DNA from: Escherichia coli
GTDB taxonomy: Bacteria; Pseudomonadota; Gammaproteobacteria; Enterobacterales; Enterobacteriaceae
Strand: one strand, 5' to 3'
Length of the DNA: 64,000 nt
Assembly (NCBI RefSeq): GCF_048403405.1
Contig: NZ_CP183129.1
In this document: positions 2,385-8,363 of the stretch, one piece after another
How the letters are laid out: every line of letters starts with the position of its first letter
How positions within the stretch are numbered: position 1 is the stretch's first letter
Program-made: the position numbers and the translations under genes
The notes under the pieces: generated by a model
Database searches by the model: none
Seen by the model: only the letters and a program-made list of their open reading frames with translations
What the model was told of the DNA's origin: nothing

Positions 2385-2453
2385 GCTGCCTCATTTTCCG
2401 CCTGGCTGGACTATCTTTAGGACTGGCACAGGAAGAATATGAGGAAGCGAACG

Positions 2454-4514
2454 ATGAGCAAGGCAGGCAAAATAACCGCTGCGATTTCAGGGGCTTTCTT
2501 GTTGTTGATTGTCGTGGCGATCATTTTGATTGCAACTTTTGACTGGAATCGACTCAAACCGACCATCAACCAGAAAGTCTCTGCGGAGTTGAATCGTCCG
2601 TTCGCTATCCGTGGCGATCTGGGCGTGGTGTGGGAGCGGCAAAAACAAGAAACTGGCTGGCGCAGCTGGGTGCCGTGGCCCCATGTACACGCGGAAGACA
2701 TCATTCTTGGCAATCCACCGGATATTCCCGAAGTCACAATGGTGCATTTGCCGCGAGTAGAAGCGACGCTGGCCCCGCTGGCGCTGCTGACCAAAACGGT
2801 CTGGTTGCCGTGGATCAAGCTCGAAAAGCCCGACGCGCGCCTGATTCGCCTCTCCGAAAAGAACAATAACTGGACCTTTAATCTCGCCAACGATGACAAC
2901 AAAGACGCGAATGCAAAGCCGTCGGCGTGGTCGTTTCGGCTGGATAATATTCTGTTCGATCAAGGGCGGATCGCCATTGATGACAAAGTAAGCAAAGCGG
3001 ATCTGGAAATTTTTGTCGATCCGTTAGGCAAGCCGCTGCCGTTCAGCGAAGTTACTGGATCGAAAGGTGAAGCGGATAAAGAAAAGGTCGGCGATTACGT
3101 TTTTGGCCTGAAGGCGCAGGGACGTTATAACGGTGAACCGCTCGCGGGTAAGGGGAAAATTGGCGGTATGCTGGCGCTGCGTGGCGAAGGGACGCCATTT
3201 CCTGTACAGGCTGATTTTCGCTCTGGTAACACCCGTGTTGCTTTTGATGGCGTTGTGAATGACCCAATGAAGATGGGTGGTGTCGATTTACGGCTTAAAT
3301 TTTCTGGCGATTCGCTGGGTGATCTCTATGAACTGACGGGCGTTCTGCTGCCCGATACCCCGCCGTTTGAAACGGATGGTCGGCTGGTAGCGAAAATCGA
3401 CACTGAAAAATCGTCGGTCTTTGATTATCGCGGTTTTAATGGGCGAATTGGCGATAGCGATATCCACGGTTCTCTGGTCTACACCGCCGGCAAGCCACGA
3501 CCAAAACTGGAAGGTGATGTTGAGTCGCGGCAATTGCGGCTGGCAGATTTAGGGCCGTTAATTGGCGTTGATTCCGGGAAAGGAGCTGAAAAGTCGAAAC
3601 GGTCTGAACAGAAGAAGGGTGAAAAAAGCGTTCAGCCTGCGGGCAAAGTGCTGCCTTATGACCGCTTCGAAACCGATAAATGGGACGTCATGGATGCCGA
3701 TGTTCGCTTCAAAGGGCGGCGCATTGAGCATGGCAGTAGCCTGCCGATTAGCGATCTTTCTACTCATATCATCCTCAAAAATGCTGACCTGCGCCTGCAA
3801 CCGCTGAAATTTGGCATGGCAGGCGGCAGCATTGCGGCGAATATTCATCTGGAAGGTGATAAAAAACCGATGCAAGGGCGGGCAGATATTCAGGCTCGTC
3901 GGCTGAAACTGAAAGAACTGATGCCCGATGTGGAACTGATGCAGAAGACGCTGGGGGAAATGAACGGTGACGCGGAACTACGCGGTAGCGGTAACTCGGT
4001 GGCGGCGCTTTTAGGCAACAGTAACGGCAACCTGAAACTGTTGATGAATGACGGGCTGGTGAGCCGCAACCTGATGGAGATTGTCGGGCTGAATGTCGGT
4101 AACTACATTGTCGGTGCGATATTTGGTGACGATGAGGTGCGGGTGAACTGTGCGGCGGCGAATCTGGATATTGCCAACGGCGTGGCGCGCCCGCAGATTT
4201 TTGCTTTCGATACTGAGAACGCGTTGATTAACGTTACCGGCACGGCAAGTTTTGCTTCGGAACAGCTGGATTTGACTATTGATCCGGAGAGTAAAGGAAT
4301 TCGGATTATCACACTGCGTTCGCCGCTGTATGTGCGTGGGACGTTTAAAAATCCGCAGGCTGGGGTGAAAGCCGGGCCGTTGATTGCTCGCGGAGCCGTT
4401 GCGGCGGCACTGGCAACGCTGGTAACACCGGCGGCGGCGTTATTGGCACTGATCTCACCTTCCGAAGGGGATGCTAATCAGTGTCGGACGATTTTGTCGC
4501 AGATGAAGAAGTGA
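2454..4514 (+). CDS. yhjG: AsmA-family inner membrane protein
   Basis: 686-aa product with an N-terminal TM anchor (AISGAFLLLIVVAIILIATF); synteny. Start could be 15 nt upstream at 2439. Confidence 0.85.
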   Translation: MSKAGKITAAISGAFLLLIVVAIILIATFDWNRLKPTINQKVSAELNRPFAIRGDLGVVWERQKQETGWRSWVPWPHVHAEDIILGNPPDIPEVTMVHLPRVEATLAPLALLTKTVWLPWIKLEKPDARLIRLSEKNNNWTFNLANDDNKDANAKPSAWSFRLDNILFDQGRIAIDDKVSKADLEIFVDPLGKPLPFSEVTGSKGEADKEKVGDYVFGLKAQGRYNGEPLAGKGKIGGMLALRGEGTPFPVQADFRSGNTRVAFDGVVNDPMKMGGVDLRLKFSGDSLGDLYELTGVLLPDTPPFETDGRLVAKIDTEKSSVFDYRGFNGRIGDSDIHGSLVYTAGKPRPKLEGDVESRQLRLADLGPLIGVDSGKGAEKSKRSEQKKGEKSVQPAGKVLPYDRFETDKWDVMDADVRFKGRRIEHGSSLPISDLSTHIILKNADLRLQPLKFGMAGGSIAANIHLEGDKKPMQGRADIQARRLKLKELMPDVELMQKTLGEMNGDAELRGSGNSVAALLGNSNGNLKLLMNDGLVSRNLMEIVGLNVGNYIVGAIFGDDEVRVNCAAANLDIANGVARPQIFAFDTENALINVTGTASFASEQLDLTIDPESKGIRIITLRSPLYVRGTFKNPQAGVKAGPLIARGAVAAALATLVTPAAALLALISPSEGDANQCRTILSQMKK

Positions 4515-4554
4515 TGAGGTTGGATTGTGTTTGCTGGTGAGTTCGGGAGCAGCG

Positions 4555-4677
4555 TGCTCCCCTCCCCCTAACCCTCTCCCCAAAGGGGCGAGGGGACTGT
4601 TTTGTGCGTGTTGAAACAACGAGTACCGCTTTTCCGTTCACTTTCTGGGGAGAGGGCCGGGGTGAGGGTGGCAGCCC
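4555..4677. repeat. GC-rich intergenic repeat with internal palindrome (ctctcccc-aaag-gggcgagggg, plus inverted partner ggggagagggccggggtgaggg); BoxC-like
   Basis: Near-identical copy at 6326-6366 on the other side of yhjE; family assignment from memory is uncertain. Confidence 0.5.
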
Positions 4678-4686
4678 GCACGATAC

Positions 4687-6009
4687 TTACAACGACTGAT
4701 GTCGTGTCTCATGGGTCAGCAGCAGGGCGATTAACGTCAAGCCAGCCATCGCCGCCAGATATAACCCCACCGCACCTAACCCGTAGTTAGTCTGCAACCA
4801 GGCTGCGATATACGGCGCAACGGAAGCCCCGAGAATCGACGCTACGTTGTAAGAGAATGATGCTCCGGTGTAACGCACTTCTGTCGGGAACAGCTCTGGT
4901 AACAGCGCGCCCATCGGCCCGAAGGTCAGCCCCATCAGACTTAACCCCAGCAGCAGGAAGGCAAAAACCAGAATCGGGTTGCCAGAACCGAGCAGCGGGT
5001 TAAAGGCGAACAGCGCGAACAGGATGATCAGCGTGGTGATGATTACCATGCTTTTACGGCGACCAAAGGCATCAGCCAGTAATCCGGCGACTGGCACCAT
5101 CACGCCAAAACCAATAACTGCCATCATCAGCATCCACAACACTTCGTTACGCGGCAGGCCAAGCCCAACGGGCGCGGCGGCGGTACTAAAGGTCATAGAG
5201 TAGACCGTCATGATGTAAAACAGCGTATAGGTTGCCAGCATAATGAACGTACCCAGTACGGTTACGCGAACATGTTTGGTCAGCAGCGTACCCAGCGGGA
5301 TCTTCACCTGTTTTTTCGCTTTAGCGACTTTCTCAAACACCGGCGACTCATGCAGCGACACGCGAACATACAGGCCGATAATGACCAGCACCGCCGAGAA
5401 GATAAACGGCACGCGCCAGCCCCAGCTCATAAACTGCTCGTCGGTCAGTAGCCAGGAAAGCAGTAAGAAAGTGCCGTTGGCAAAGAAGAAGCCAATCGGT
5501 GCGCCCAGCTGCGGGAAGGAGCCGTACAGTGCACGTTTGCGCGGTGGGGCGTTTTCAGTCGCCAGCAGCGCCGCTCCGCCCCATTCGCCGCCTAAGCCCA
5601 GACCCTGACCAAATCGAGCCAGTGCCAGCAGCAGCGGGGCGAAAATACCAATCGTGGCATAGCCCGGCAGCAGACCAATCACCACGGTCGAAATCCCCAT
5701 CGTTAGCAACGAGGCGACCAGCGTCGCTTTACGCCCAACGCGATCGCCAAAATGACCAAAAACGGCAGAGCCAATGGGGCGCGCGACGAAGGCGATGGCG
5801 AAGGTGGCGAGCGACTGTAGCGTTGCTGCCGTTGGATCGCCCTGCGGGAAGAAGATATGCGGAAACACAATAACGGCCGCAGTGGCGTAAATATAAAAGT
5901 CGAAGAACTCAATGGCCGTGCCAATGAGAGAGGCGACAAGGACTTTATTACGCGAGTTGATCGGCGTGTATTCTTGCTCGTGGTCGAGTGTTGTGGCTGT
6001 TGCTTGCAT
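4687..6009 (-). CDS. yhjE: MFS transporter (metabolite:H+ symporter-like)
   Basis: 440 aa, multi-TM, MFS motifs (GHFGDRVGRK); synteny. Confidence 0.9.
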   Translation of the reverse strand: MQATATTLDHEQEYTPINSRNKVLVASLIGTAIEFFDFYIYATAAVIVFPHIFFPQGDPTAATLQSLATFAIAFVARPIGSAVFGHFGDRVGRKATLVASLLTMGISTVVIGLLPGYATIGIFAPLLLALARFGQGLGLGGEWGGAALLATENAPPRKRALYGSFPQLGAPIGFFFANGTFLLLSWLLTDEQFMSWGWRVPFIFSAVLVIIGLYVRVSLHESPVFEKVAKAKKQVKIPLGTLLTKHVRVTVLGTFIMLATYTLFYIMTVYSMTFSTAAAPVGLGLPRNEVLWMLMMAVIGFGVMVPVAGLLADAFGRRKSMVIITTLIILFALFAFNPLLGSGNPILVFAFLLLGLSLMGLTFGPMGALLPELFPTEVRYTGASFSYNVASILGASVAPYIAAWLQTNYGLGAVGLYLAAMAGLTLIALLLTHETRHQSL

Positions 6010-6325
6010 AATCTTTTCTTATTTTTTGGCTAACGAATAGCCATATTACGCACAGCAAAAGTGATATTTCAATGTGTAACAAATCGCGAAAATGGTCAAA
6101 AACCAGGCAAAAAGGGGATAATGTTTAGGCCAGTGATTTTTCTTCTATGAAATGCTTCACATAATTATTATAAATAGTGGATAAAACTGGTTTCAGGTTA
6201 AATAAAAGTTACCAACTGGATTTATATGCTGGGGTTATGAGTTGGTATGAAATTGTTTGCTCCTGAAGAGATGTAGTTTCAGGTGGTTATGTGCATGTCG
6301 TTGCCTGGTCTCTGGCTGGCTTGTA

Positions 6326-6366
6326 CCCCCTCACCCTAATCCTCTCCCCGAAGGGGCGAGGGGATC
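6326..6366. repeat. Second copy of the GC-rich intergenic repeat (ccctaatcctctccccgaaggggcgagggg)
   Basis: Direct sequence similarity to 4561-4598. Confidence 0.5.
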
Positions 6367-6401
6367 GACCGTGCGTTTATCAGGCATTATAAACCAATGA
6401 A

Positions 6402-7415
6402 TTACCGCTGCGTTTTCCCCGGCATTCGCGGGTCGTCTTTATATTCGGCGGTGGCAATCCACGCCGCGCAAAACAGCGTCAAACGGGCGAAGAAGTAGAA
6501 AAATGCCATCAGTCCCAGCACGGAACCAAATGCTGCGCCAGAGGGGGATTTCATCAGCGATGGCAGGGTGTAGGTCATCACGATTTTAATCACTTCAAAA
6601 CCAATCGCAGCCAGAAATGTTCCGCGAATCAGGGCTTTTTTGCGCGGACGGTGGCGCGGCAAGCGCCAGAAGATCCAAAAGAAAAGCAGATAGTTGGCGA
6701 AGATGGAAATCGCCAGGCCAATCAACCGCCACGTCGGTTTCAGCCACTCAATGCTGTTCAGGTGCAGGGCGCTAATAATCATTTGCTGCGCCGAACCGGC
6801 AACCGAGGTGATCGAAAGCGTCACAATCAGTGCAATCAACAAACCAATCAGCGAAATAAAATCACGCAGATATTTTACCCAGAACTTCTCCTGATCTTGC
6901 GGCGAGCGTTCCCAGACATCGCGTGACTGGGCGCGAATCGCTTCACGCAGGTTACCCATCCAGTTGATGCCGGAATAAAGCGCCACCGCCAGGCCGACAA
7001 GCCCTACGGTAGTACGCTGCTGAACGGCGGTGTTGATGGTGTTTTTCAACGTGGCGGCTAGCGTCGGATCGCTGATGTTTTGCAGAATTTTGTCGAAGAT
7101 ATCCTGTAGCAACATCGGATGGGAGGCCAGCACAAAGCCCCCTGCGGCAAACGACACCATCAAAATCGGGATCATCGATAAAAATGAGAAATAGGTGATA
7201 GCCGCACCAAACTGGTTACCCAGCCGATCGTTAAAGCGTTCTGTTGCGCGAATCAGGTGCGCAATAACCGGTTGGCGTTGGACTTTTTCGGCCGTGGTGG
7301 TGACGGTTTCCAGCGCCTGGCTAACTTTGCCGCCTTTCTCGCTATTATCCAACTGCTTAATCGGCTCGTGCTCCAGATCCTGGGTGGGACGTTTGATCTC
7401 GTTTTCCTGCGTCAT
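6402..7415 (-). CDS. yhjD: YihY/BrkB-family inner membrane protein
   Basis: 337-aa polytopic membrane protein; synteny. Confidence 0.85.
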   Translation of the reverse strand: MTQENEIKRPTQDLEHEPIKQLDNSEKGGKVSQALETVTTTAEKVQRQPVIAHLIRATERFNDRLGNQFGAAITYFSFLSMIPILMVSFAAGGFVLASHPMLLQDIFDKILQNISDPTLAATLKNTINTAVQQRTTVGLVGLAVALYSGINWMGNLREAIRAQSRDVWERSPQDQEKFWVKYLRDFISLIGLLIALIVTLSITSVAGSAQQMIISALHLNSIEWLKPTWRLIGLAISIFANYLLFFWIFWRLPRHRPRKKALIRGTFLAAIGFEVIKIVMTYTLPSLMKSPSGAAFGSVLGLMAFFYFFARLTLFCAAWIATAEYKDDPRMPGKTQR

Positions 7416-7463
7416 CCGCTCTTTTGTCCTTCTGTCGTGGTCATTCTTAAAAAGTATAGTCGG

Positions 7464-8363
7464 TCAGTCCAGGTGCTCTTTCATTACGCCAGCCAGCCAC
7501 TGCATAAACAGGTTTACACGCCGGGAAAGCTCCCGACGCTGCGGATAAATCAGCGAAAGGGAGAGCGGCTCGGCACGGTAGCCAGGCAACACTTCAATAA
7601 GCCGCCCGGCACGCAGGGCTTCGCGCACGGCAATGCGCGGGATCTGAATAATCCCCAGACCGGCAAGACCGGCGGCGAGATAGTTTTCGCGACTGTTTAC
7701 CGTCAACATGCCGCCAGACTTAAACCACTGGACGCCATTAACGCTGGCAACCTCAAAACCTAACGGATGTACACCCAGGTGCGGTGTGTAACGCACTATT
7801 GCGTGCGAAGTCAGATCGTCGGGGCTTTGAGGATAACCAAAGCGCGTCAGATAGTGTGGACTGGCACAATTGACCACGGTCAGTTTGCCGAGGGGACGGG
7901 CGATAACGCCATCTTCCGGTGACGCGCCAGTGCGTATCACGCAATCAAAACCATCGTGAAGAATATCTACCGGACGGTCATGGCTACTCAGCTCCAGCTC
8001 AATTCCCGGATGCAGATAGAGAAATTCCGACAGACGCGGCAGTAACAGGCTTTTCGCGATTCCTGGCGGGATGTCGATGCGTAATTTACCGCTGATACTG
8101 GTGGCATCCTGTTGAAACAGACCGTCCAGTTCGTTGAGATTACTCAACACATCTTTTGCCCGTTGATAATAGGTCATGCCTTCTGGCGTGAGTTTGACCC
8201 GCCGCGTGGTGCGCTGGAGAAGCTGGGTGCCAAGTTGATGTTCCAGTGCCTGTATCTGGCGCGAAACACTTCCCTTTGGCAAAGCAAAGAAATCCGCTGC
8301 GCGGGAAAAACTTTCCAGCTCAGCGACTTTGATGAACAACTGCATTGCGTGAATTTTATCCAT
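7464..8363 (-). CDS. yhjC: LysR-family transcriptional regulator
   Basis: N-terminal HTH (MDKIHAMQLFIKVAELESFSRAA) followed by a LysR substrate-binding domain; start trimmed to the internal Met (299 aa). Confidence 0.85.
   Translation of the reverse strand: MDKIHAMQLFIKVAELESFSRAADFFALPKGSVSRQIQALEHQLGTQLLQRTTRRVKLTPEGMTYYQRAKDVLSNLNELDGLFQQDATSISGKLRIDIPPGIAKSLLLPRLSEFLYLHPGIELELSSHDRPVDILHDGFDCVIRTGASPEDGVIARPLGKLTVVNCASPHYLTRFGYPQSPDDLTSHAIVRYTPHLGVHPLGFEVASVNGVQWFKSGGMLTVNSRENYLAAGLAGLGIIQIPRIAVREALRAGRLIEVLPGYRAEPLSLSLIYPQRRELSRRVNLFMQWLAGVMKEHLD

Follow-up and report, generated by a model that had tools for sequence, protein, structure and literature searches.

BoxC repeats on both sides of yhjE lie in two independently varying spacers of Escherichia coli

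Introduction

Copies of a short GC-rich palindromic repeat lie on both sides of yhjE, a transporter gene, in a 64-kb stretch of Escherichia coli DNA (the whole stretch that we analyzed, hereafter the window). A preliminary description of this DNA suggested that the same extragenic element flanking a single gene could mark terminators, mRNA stability elements or the footprint of a past rearrangement, and named BoxC, REP and RIP as families to which the element might belong. The locus raises the question of what these repeats are, and whether those on the two sides of yhjE have anything to do with each other.

BoxC elements are dispersed, intergenic, enterobacterial repeats, each combining a single C-rich block with two G-rich ones. 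They are also named PIT (potential intrastrand triplex) elements or TMECO, with the consensus CCCTCNCCC-N3-6-GGGNGAGGG-N3-GGGNGAGGG (Holder et al., Nucleic Acids Res 2015; PMC4666352); earlier BoxC/PIT work by Bergler/Bachellier and by Hoyne & Maher is cited in the same paper. MG1655 has 23 strict TMECO copies, most copies occupy fixed loci across 56 strains, and the spacers at TMECO loci are more variable than others from strain to strain (PMC4666352). The stability of an intrastrand triplex of the G-rich strand is an in vitro result, not an in vivo one, obtained with near-identical oligonucleotides (PMC4666352).

Results

A repeat search of the 64-kb window aligned positions 4559-4596 with 6327-6364 as a direct repeat of 38 nt (35/38 identical, 92%). 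The degenerate consensus given in the preliminary description had two exact matches in the window, at 4566-4596 and 6334-6364, against an expectation of 0.00 from 100 dinucleotide-preserving shuffles. The matching repeats that it had placed at 4568-4598 and 6336-6366 are real and lie 2 nt further to the left; the inverted partner of the first, given as 4646-4677, is also real but partial, ending at 4673. The arms of this inverted repeat, 4555-4582 and 4646-4673, are 28 nt long and 79% complementary, with 63 nt between them. We refer to the three elements as copies A (4559-4596, minus strand), B (4648-4669, plus strand) and C (6327-6364, minus strand). Apart from these, a block-by-block regex scan of the window found no BoxC copies; block-wise regexes were used for copy C, which a whole-pattern fuzzy regex misses (variable gap and best-match mode).

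All three copies are intergenic. They lie within the spacers 4515-4686 and 6010-6401, which separate yhjG (2439-4514, plus strand), yhjE (4687-6009, minus strand) and yhjD (6402-7415, minus strand), three gene calls that agree with the RefSeq annotation of identical genomes. Every copy is found 18-45 nt past a stop codon, and copies A and C are direct repeats 1,768 bp apart with exactly one gene, yhjE, between them.

Judged by sequence, the three elements belong to the BoxC family, A and C as complete minus-strand copies and B as a truncated inverted one. Positions 4560-4594 of copy A, read on the minus strand, agree throughout with the published TMECO pattern; the blocks of copy C match with one substitution at 6328-6362, also on the minus strand, and copy B matches in its G blocks only (4648-4668, plus strand), with no C-block match upstream. 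Copy A, which reads TCCCCTCGCCCCTTTGGGGAGAGGGTTAGGGGGAGGGG on the minus strand and lies 45 nt after the yhjG stop codon, is of type A, with TTA as its second loop, and has one stem mismatch (A mm). Copy C, TCCCCTCGCCCCTTCGGGGAGAGGATTAGGGTGAGGGG on the minus strand, is of the same A mm type with the substitution in G block 1 (GGGAGAGGA); it is located 38 nt downstream of the yhjD stop codon and upstream of the yhjE promoter region. Copy B, GGGAGAGGG-CCG-GGGTGAGGG-T, carries CCG as its second loop (type B), runs opposite to copy A and lies 18 nt away from the yhjE stop codon; both of its G blocks are intact, its C block is lost, and it falls within the inverted repeat shared with 4555-4582.

Individual K-12 copies gave close matches. 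Copy A is 35/36 identical to K-12 TMECO nos. 7, 11, and 15 (Holder Table 1, PMC4666352), and its exact variant appears in the Holder supplement for strains SMS-3-5 and O26:H11 11368 (PMC4666352). Copy C is 34/36 identical to K-12 TMECO no. 23. The K-12 copy upstream of fabI (envM), TMECO no. 9, has the same sequence, and it was at this site that BoxC was first described. Copies A (TTA) and B (CCG) show the inverted A+B pairing of the family, which is seen as a full pair in strain EC21Z-048, and the minus-then-plus order of the A/B pair is that of the K-12 pair 17+18. Among the three families named at the outset, BoxC is therefore the correct one, on the strength of both the TMECO pattern and the match to K-12 copies.

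The preliminary description had held that a ubiquitous high-copy repeat with no positional bias would refute its reading, and a dispersed multi-copy repeat is essentially what we found: blastn with a 141-nt query located BoxC at a median of 14 places per E. coli genome, the maximum being 30, while genomes identical to that of the window's strain had 17. The copies in the window share with BoxC/PIT/TMECO elements the three-block sequence, the TTA and CCG loops, the A+B pairing, the intergenic placement, the roughly 14-30 places per genome, the spacer variability and the partial deletions that leave hairpins. Nothing essential differs; copy B lacks the C block, copy C departs from the strict consensus by one substitution, and K-12 has REP/BIME rather than BoxC at these two loci. 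The repeats flanking yhjE are BoxC elements of an already known kind, real but ordinary.

REP/BIME (PU) elements are likewise short, GC-rich, palindromic extragenic repeats found just past stop codons, and in K-12 and most E. coli genomes it is these same two spacers that contain them. That the elements of the window are themselves REP/BIME (or RIP) repeats is nevertheless practically impossible, and we rejected this identity by direct alignment with K-12: the elements have no sequence in common with the K-12 REPs at the same sites (GCCGGATGCG...CTTATCCGGCCTAC), and they do not follow the REP palindrome consensus (GCCGGATG...CATCCGGC type, with a conserved GTAG/CTAC end). Copy number is also much lower, as the K-12 REP-containing spacer matches about 40 or more places per genome compared to about 14 for the BoxC query, which indicates that REP and BoxC are different families.

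To see how the two spacers vary we surveyed 5,426 complete E. coli genomes. The BoxC allele of the yhjG-yhjE spacer is carried by 1,601-2,022 of them (about 30-37%) and the K-12-type allele by 3,578, and a 40-bp minimal allele also exists; the BoxC allele of the yhjE-yhjD spacer is found in 600 genomes (11%). BoxC is accordingly missing from 63-70% of genomes at the first site and from 89% at the second. Altogether the yhjG-yhjE spacer has four or more alleles and the yhjE-yhjD spacer three or more. Alignment showed that K-12 has REP/BIME in both spacers, with a hairpin and two REPs between yhjG and yhjE. Relative to K-12, the yhjG-yhjE spacer of the window (4518-4686) is replaced from stop codon to stop codon. 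On the other side of the gene, comparison with K-12 and three further strains shows an allele-specific segment containing copy C (6295-6406), which stands in place of the K-12 REP/BIME segment and extends into the final sense codon and the stop codon of yhjD. Each copy thus sits in a separate hypervariable spacer, whose alternative alleles span the whole spacer and consist of a BoxC cassette, a REP/BIME cassette or a minimal sequence.

The two sites vary independently. EC21Z-048 combines BoxC at yhjG-yhjE with REP at yhjE-yhjD, ST2747 and PRO_A have REP at the first site and BoxC at the second, K-12 has REP at both, and the window's strain and 2022N21-074 have BoxC at both. As all four allele combinations exist, the two BoxC copies form no unit around yhjE, and the bracketing of this gene as a unit, implied by the preliminary description, is refuted. 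Two spacers that vary independently happen to carry BoxC together here, a strain-specific coincidence.

The flanks of copy C were followed with a sensitive blastn search using a synthetic empty-site query. In all 600 genomes these flanks occurred together with the BoxC core and at this one locus only. Their absence without the core or elsewhere fits a single old event followed by vertical spread or by transfer through homologous recombination. With 7/8 complementarity, the flanks TGCCTGGT...ATCAGGCA loosely resemble REP halves, and we considered whether copy C is inserted in a split REP; this idea found no support, as the empty-site query returned zero REP loci and only the same 600 genomes, always with a 39-bp BoxC insert.

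Copy B is a 61-bp deletion derivative of a full inverted pair. By alignment, the window spacer is 61 bp shorter than the common 233-bp allele of EC21Z-048, and the gap falls between diverged tandem units, which a repeat search detected in L003 as direct repeats at a spacing of 59 and 62. L003 has a full type-B copy at the position of copy B, and the full-pair spacer contains an inverted repeat of 35 nt (83%). The sequence between copies A and B in the window (4597-4647, plus strand) is a single hybrid unit of the approximately 60-bp diverged tandem duplication of other strains; it holds a CCGCTTTTC motif at 4626-4634, elsewhere seen just ahead of type-B copies, and next to it a degenerate C-block remnant at about 4635-4641.

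The BoxC loci of K-12 are likewise variable between strains. In another strain the hrpB-mrcB pair is reduced to a plain hairpin by a 64-bp deletion between two GGGAGAGGG blocks, and the lldD-trmL locus has several collapsed or empty alleles across strains. The proposed footprint of a past rearrangement holds only loosely, in the sense of hypervariable spacers, whole-spacer alleles and the deletion in copy B; it does not hold for a unit bracketing yhjE.

We also looked for signals of transcription at the repeats. A terminator/promoter consensus scan, which called terminators as a hairpin plus T-run, found no terminator-like sites at or near any copy and no promoter consensus at the repeats, and inspection of the sequence showed no T-run after the BoxC stems. 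According to the summary in PMC4666352, earlier work saw no promoter or terminator activity of PIT elements. BoxC thus has in common with Rho-independent terminators a GC-rich stem-loop soon after a stop codon, but differs from them in lacking the T/U-run, in not being called by the consensus scan and in this reported inactivity, so that the suggestion of terminators is left unsupported. A search of 3500-7500 against Rfam families (E≤1) returned only eukaryotic microRNA models at 21-25 bits, with gathering thresholds of 68-95; these sub-threshold matches (E-values 0.12-0.56) are not applicable to a bacterium and are explained by the long hairpin.

This hairpin, formed by the A/B composite, is predicted to be strong on both strands (RNA, -69.4 and -73.0 kcal/mol; z -4.5 and -3.6). 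Single copies are predicted to fold at -22.6 and -25.8 kcal/mol as RNA (z -1.4 and -2.65) and at -10.8 and -9.2 kcal/mol as DNA (Watson-Crick pairs only), the RNA z-scores being modest because any sequence of such composition folds well. The terminator-like hairpin TTGCCGGATGTCTGACATCCGGCAA of the K-12 and minimal alleles is missing from the BoxC allele of the yhjG-yhjE spacer, so that something else must end or stabilize the two convergent transcripts there. A further hairpin with a perfect 7-bp stem, GGGAGCA-GCG-TGCTCCC, can be read from the sequence at 4545-4561, where it overlaps the G-rich (3') extension of copy A; it has no T-run on either strand and was not called in the terminator scan. 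The same G-rich extension lies beside copy A in EC21Z-048.

Discussion

We consider it probable (about 0.8) that the repeats at yhjE are BoxC members present as coincidental, structure-prone passengers of two independent hypervariable spacers, with no unit around the gene. BoxC elements are probably selfish or neutral passengers, with consequences that would be mainly structural. In single-stranded DNA their repeated G and C blocks would form strong hairpins and, according to the literature, intrastrand triplexes, and short direct repeats would promote slippage or microhomology deletions and hence spacer turnover; an effect on yhjG, yhjE, or yhjD, if any, would be limited to a 3'-UTR hairpin. 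Finding two BoxC loci within 1.8 kb by chance is somewhat unlikely (about 5-10%, a rough estimate from 12-17 loci in 5 Mb), and this counts against the coincidence reading. The result has little consequence for yhjE itself and removes a possible false lead, as the gene has no gene-specific regulatory pair, composite transposon or new element around it. The locus does illustrate the turnover of E. coli spacers as whole cassettes bounded by stop codons, and its allele series of BoxC, REP, and minimal spacers provides natural, isogenic-like contrasts.

Two direct repeats with 35/38 identity, 1,768 bp apart and bracketing one gene, could be taken as the ends or footprint of a rearrangement that moved or can excise yhjE, as a composite element or by direct-repeat recombination. 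This is very improbable: no fewer than 5,419 of the 5,426 genomes contain yhjE together with both of its neighbors, whatever the spacer alleles, the genes follow one another as in K-12, either BoxC allele is found without the other, and the copy-C cassette is confined to one locus. We rejected a composite unit around yhjE on the ground that the two sites assort independently. A role at RNA 3' ends is easier to envisage, though still rather unlikely. BoxC would then be a functional 3'-UTR element that terminates transcription or blocks 3'-to-5' exonucleases after yhjG, yhjE, and yhjD, doing what REP/BIME or a simple hairpin does in other alleles. The position of all copies just beyond stop codons is consistent with this, as are the sense orientation of copies A and C with respect to yhjE and yhjD, the gene immediately upstream in each case, the predicted folding of the single copies and of the composite, the REPs at the same positions in other strains, and the loss of the terminator-like hairpin from the BoxC allele. 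REPs can stabilize upstream mRNA, and only by this analogy might BoxC do so too. However, the hairpins are not followed by a T-run and the terminator scan was empty there, the single-copy z-scores are modest, PIT elements are summarized in PMC4666352 as having no terminator activity, and most genomes do without the element at either site. K-12 BoxC pairs also occur in the divergent promoter region of fepB-entC, and the family is thus not restricted to 3' ends.

BoxC, and especially the A/B pair, might also be a REPIN- or MITE-like non-autonomous element moved by a putative enzyme, which would preferentially land in the same stop-codon-proximal slots as REP/BIME. We think this quite unlikely, despite several features that point toward it. 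Flanks are conserved past the core (GCTTTTC before type B in K-12, CAG/CGG-T before type A), three K-12 pairs share a conserved spacer of about 27 nt, the architecture resembles terminal inverted repeats (28 nt, 79%; 35 nt, 83%), several loci are polymorphic for presence and absence, and both sites flanking yhjE hold BIMEs in other strains. The inverted pair with conserved spacer and flanks and the presence/absence polymorphism are shared with REPINs and MITEs; neither target-site duplications nor clean empty sites were seen for BoxC. Empty alleles hold unrelated filler rather than clean excision sites, BoxC alleles differ over the whole spacer and not by simple insertion, the copy-C flanks are found at no other locus and never without the core, no associated gene was found, and most copies are at fixed loci in 56 strains (PMC4666352).

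A related view, which we regard as a long shot, is that BoxC and REP/BIME are alternative occupants of the same slots and that the A/B pair is REPIN-like, mobilized or recognized by a putative protein. To our knowledge there is no mobilizing enzyme for BoxC, and we know of no RAYT-type transposase or binding protein for it. Bachellier and colleagues are said to have described boxC insertions in BIME-containing spacers (Genetics, in 1997). If true, the alternative-occupant view would explain why the triple-block motif occurs in high copy and with a fixed pair orientation from Enterobacteriaceae to Mitsuaria, Ca. Contendobacter, and a Methylomirabilota MAG. Mobility is also favored by unrelated bacteria in which the same motif is present in high copy and its pairs strongly prefer one orientation: a scan of GTDB genomes with the TMECO pattern gave, among the matches listed, Mitsuaria (Burkholderiales), Ca. 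Contendobacter and a Methylomirabilota MAG, and among the listed matches in Mitsuaria 29 of the 41 neighboring pairs were in the minus-then-plus order.

The repeats flanking yhjE are BoxC elements

In this segment of an E. coli chromosome, the gene yhjE (4687-6009, minus strand) lies between yhjG (2439-4514, plus strand) and yhjD (6402-7415, minus strand), and the preliminary description reported matching GC-rich palindromic repeats on both of its sides. The degenerate consensus proposed there has two exact matches in the 64-kb window, at 4566-4596 and 6334-6364, and none was expected by chance (100 dinucleotide-preserving shuffles). The repeats are therefore real, but lie 2 nt further left than had been given. 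The direct repeat reaches 38 nt, with 92% identity between 4559-4596 (copy A) and 6327-6364 (copy C), both on the minus strand. Copy A also has the inverted partner ascribed to it, with 28-nt arms (4555-4582 and 4646-4673) that are 79% complementary; this partner holds a truncated copy on the plus strand, copy B (4648-4669). No copy beyond these three was found across the 64-kb window.

Read on the minus strand, copy A is TCCCCTCGCCCCTTTGGGGAGAGGGTTAGGGGGAGGGG. It fits the consensus of TMECO, the 'triplex motif' of E. coli, CCCTCNCCC-N3-6-GGGNGAGGG-N3-GGGNGAGGG, whose older names are BoxC and PIT element (Holder et al., 2015, PMC4666352). With K-12 copies nos. 7, 11, and 15 (Table 1, PMC4666352) it agrees at 35 of 36 positions, and its exact variant appears in the supplement of Holder et al. 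for strains SMS-3-5 and O26:H11 11368 (PMC4666352). The earlier suspicion of a BoxC-type repeat was thus correct. The core of copy C (6328-6362, minus strand) departs from the consensus by a single base change, which falls within the first G block; that of copy B (4648-4668, plus strand) consists of both G blocks and the type-B loop CCG, the C block being absent.

Every testable feature of BoxC/PIT/TMECO membership was found in these elements. Those that define REP/BIME elements and intrinsic terminators were not, and both identities were rejected. The comparison with MITEs gave a mixed outcome: inverted arms are present, but neither a target-site duplication nor a clean empty site was seen. 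Rfam has no family for BoxC and returned only sub-threshold microRNA matches, which are meaningless. In K-12, the copy that lies upstream of fabI (envM), the locus where BoxC was first described, carries the same sequence and corresponds to TMECO no. 9. In a separate survey, BoxC figures as one of the stem-loop repeat families known from E. coli, with 22 copies by its own search and an earlier literature figure of 32 copies of 56 bp (PMC2267715). The feature is real, ordinary, and already on record, including the exact sequence variant.

A genome-wide search with a 141-nt query covering copies A and B identified a dispersed, multi-copy family, with a median of 14 places per E. coli genome (maximum 30) and 17 in six genomes identical to the window. 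In an alignment of BoxC copies (six K-12 loci, EC21Z-048, and the window), the conserved unit exceeds the triple-block core: GCTTTTC precedes type-B copies, and CAG or CGG, then T, precedes type-A copies (loop TTA). A spacer of ~27 nt, GAACAGGCC.GCA..GG.GCGAA.ATT.A, is conserved in three K-12 plus/minus pairs, and the minus-then-plus order of A and B matches K-12 pair 17+18 (between lldD and trmL). That conserved flanks extend past the published core is mildly new, if local.

Spacer alleles vary independently on the two sides of yhjE

Alleles of the yhjG-yhjE spacer (site 1) and the yhjE-yhjD spacer (site 2) were counted in 5,426 complete E. coli genomes. K-12 has REP/BIME elements and no BoxC in both spacers; its sequence differs from the window across the whole of site 1, from yhjG stop to yhjE stop, and at site 2 the difference extends into the last codon of yhjD. 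At site 1, the K-12 type (hairpin and two REPs) occurs in 3,578 genomes and the BoxC type in 1,601-2,022, varying with the query; in most of the latter the spacer measures 233 bp and holds a complete A/B pair. A minimal 40-bp spacer (hairpin only) was seen in strain 729_xx_1_3_yolk. The site 2 BoxC allele is present in 600 of the 5,426 genomes (11%), the remainder being REP/BIME variants. Because the flanks of copy C were never found without it, nor at any other locus, they point to one cassette of single origin. The alternation of both yhjE-flanking loci between BoxC and BIME cassettes is likewise a mildly new, local observation; boxC insertions in BIME-containing spacers were reportedly described already by Bachellier et al. 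in 1997.

All four allele combinations exist: BoxC at site 1 with REP at site 2 (EC21Z-048), the reverse (ST2747, PRO_A), REP at both (K-12), and BoxC at both (the window, 2022N21-074). Copies A and C are therefore not a unit bracketing yhjE. By a rough estimate (~12-17 loci per 5-Mb genome), the chance of any BoxC pair within 1.8 kb is ~5-10%. Over 4400-6500 (2.1 kb), six genomes are identical to the window and the next best reaches at most 98.4%. The window haplotype joins a rare deletion form of the site 1 BoxC allele to the 11%-frequency site 2 allele, which suggests a recombinant or an uncommon lineage.

Several side observations concern these spacers. A bidirectional terminator-like hairpin, TTGCCGGATGTCTGACATCCGGCAA, directly follows the yhjG stop in both the K-12 and the minimal site 1 alleles; in 729_xx_1_3_yolk, where the yhjE 3' end is divergent, the 40-bp spacer holds just this hairpin. 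The BoxC allele (4515-4686) wholly lacks it (compared with the 729_xx_1_3_yolk locus, L004:2416-2455, and the K-12 locus, L001). Upstream of yhjE, at 6277 (between ...AAGAGATG and TAGTTTCAGG), the window is without a 20-bp stretch, GCTGAAGAGGCTCTGGGGAC or a variant, that K-12 and three further strains possess; its absence may co-segregate with the copy C cassette. In strain SK1402 (NZ_AP046545.1), the query 6100-6620 matches contiguously in the yhjD part only (query 308-521), with a second matching place elsewhere in the record, suggesting an insertion or rearrangement in the yhjE-yhjD spacer.

Deletions at BoxC loci

In the common 233-bp site 1 allele, a unit of ~60 bp is present twice in tandem, the two versions having diverged, and copy B has its C block intact in the second. 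The copy B of the window arose by deletion: a single hybrid unit is left there, and the spacer is 61 bp shorter. This shortened form recurs in strain 2022N21-074, with a one-base difference at the start of the first G block of copy B. At hrpB-mrcB, a K-12 BoxC locus, a 64-bp stretch between two GGGAGAGGG blocks is missing from one strain, where a plain hairpin remains, and a second strain has no BoxC pair at all; lldD-trmL has at least four length classes. In the lldD-trmL spacer of Res13-Lact-PER12-33-A (L136:250-290), the palindrome GCTGTCTCTTGATCAGATCTCCTGATCAAGAGACAG stands in place of the central part of the BoxC pair; its arms equal the IS50/Tn5 inside end, and it may be a transposon-end footprint. 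The deletions reproduce the 'palindrome effect' and raised variability reported at TMECO loci by Holder et al. (PMC4666352).

Structure and possible role of the copies

All three copies belong to BoxC and occupy hypervariable spacers. The preliminary description offered terminators as one meaning, but a terminator scan found no canonical terminator at any copy. Strong hairpins can form when the elements are single-stranded. Single copies have predicted RNA hairpins of -22.6 and -25.8 kcal/mol and DNA hairpins of -10.8 and -9.2 kcal/mol, and the A/B composite has predicted RNA folds of -69.4 and -73.0 kcal/mol on the two strands. The z-scores of the single copies are modest, since any sequence of this composition folds well. 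In vitro, oligonucleotides nearly identical to these copies adopt a very stable intrastrand triplex; no triplex was seen in duplex DNA or in living cells (Holder et al., 2015, PMC4666352). Earlier work summarised in that paper found neither promoter nor terminator activity for these elements (PMC4666352).

The copies are probably selfish or neutral passengers, whose repeated G/C blocks would favour slippage, microhomology deletions, and whole-spacer replacement; any effect on neighbouring genes would probably not go beyond a 3'-UTR hairpin. Since the terminator-like hairpin found in the other site 1 alleles is missing from the BoxC allele, stop codons lie 18-45 nt before all copies, and copies A and C are in sense orientation relative to the upstream gene, we keep a functional 3'-end role as a minority possibility. 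It seems improbable that BoxC is a REPIN-like mobile unit, spread across phyla, that has a putative partner protein and uses the same landing sites as REP/BIME.

BoxC cores on plasmids and outside enterobacteria

BoxC cores are present on some E. coli plasmids (NZ_CP074792.1, 1628-1664; 45 plasmid places with the 141-nt query), in contrast to Holder et al. (2015, PMC4666352), who reported having seen no link between the motif and plasmids, phages, or transposons. Among the matches listed, the strict TMECO pattern reaches high copy number far from enterobacteria, in comparison loci of Mitsuaria chitosanitabida (L014-L125), a Methylomirabilota MAG (L006-L013), and Ca. Contendobacter (L021-L023). 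Mitsuaria has 150 pattern matches in the ~1 Mb of DNA examined, with lineage-specific consensus flanks such as a ...TCTTCGGG tail; 29 of its 41 neighbouring pairs among the matches listed are minus-then-plus, with gaps of 30-272 nt. One Ca. Contendobacter copy is nearly identical to E. coli type A.
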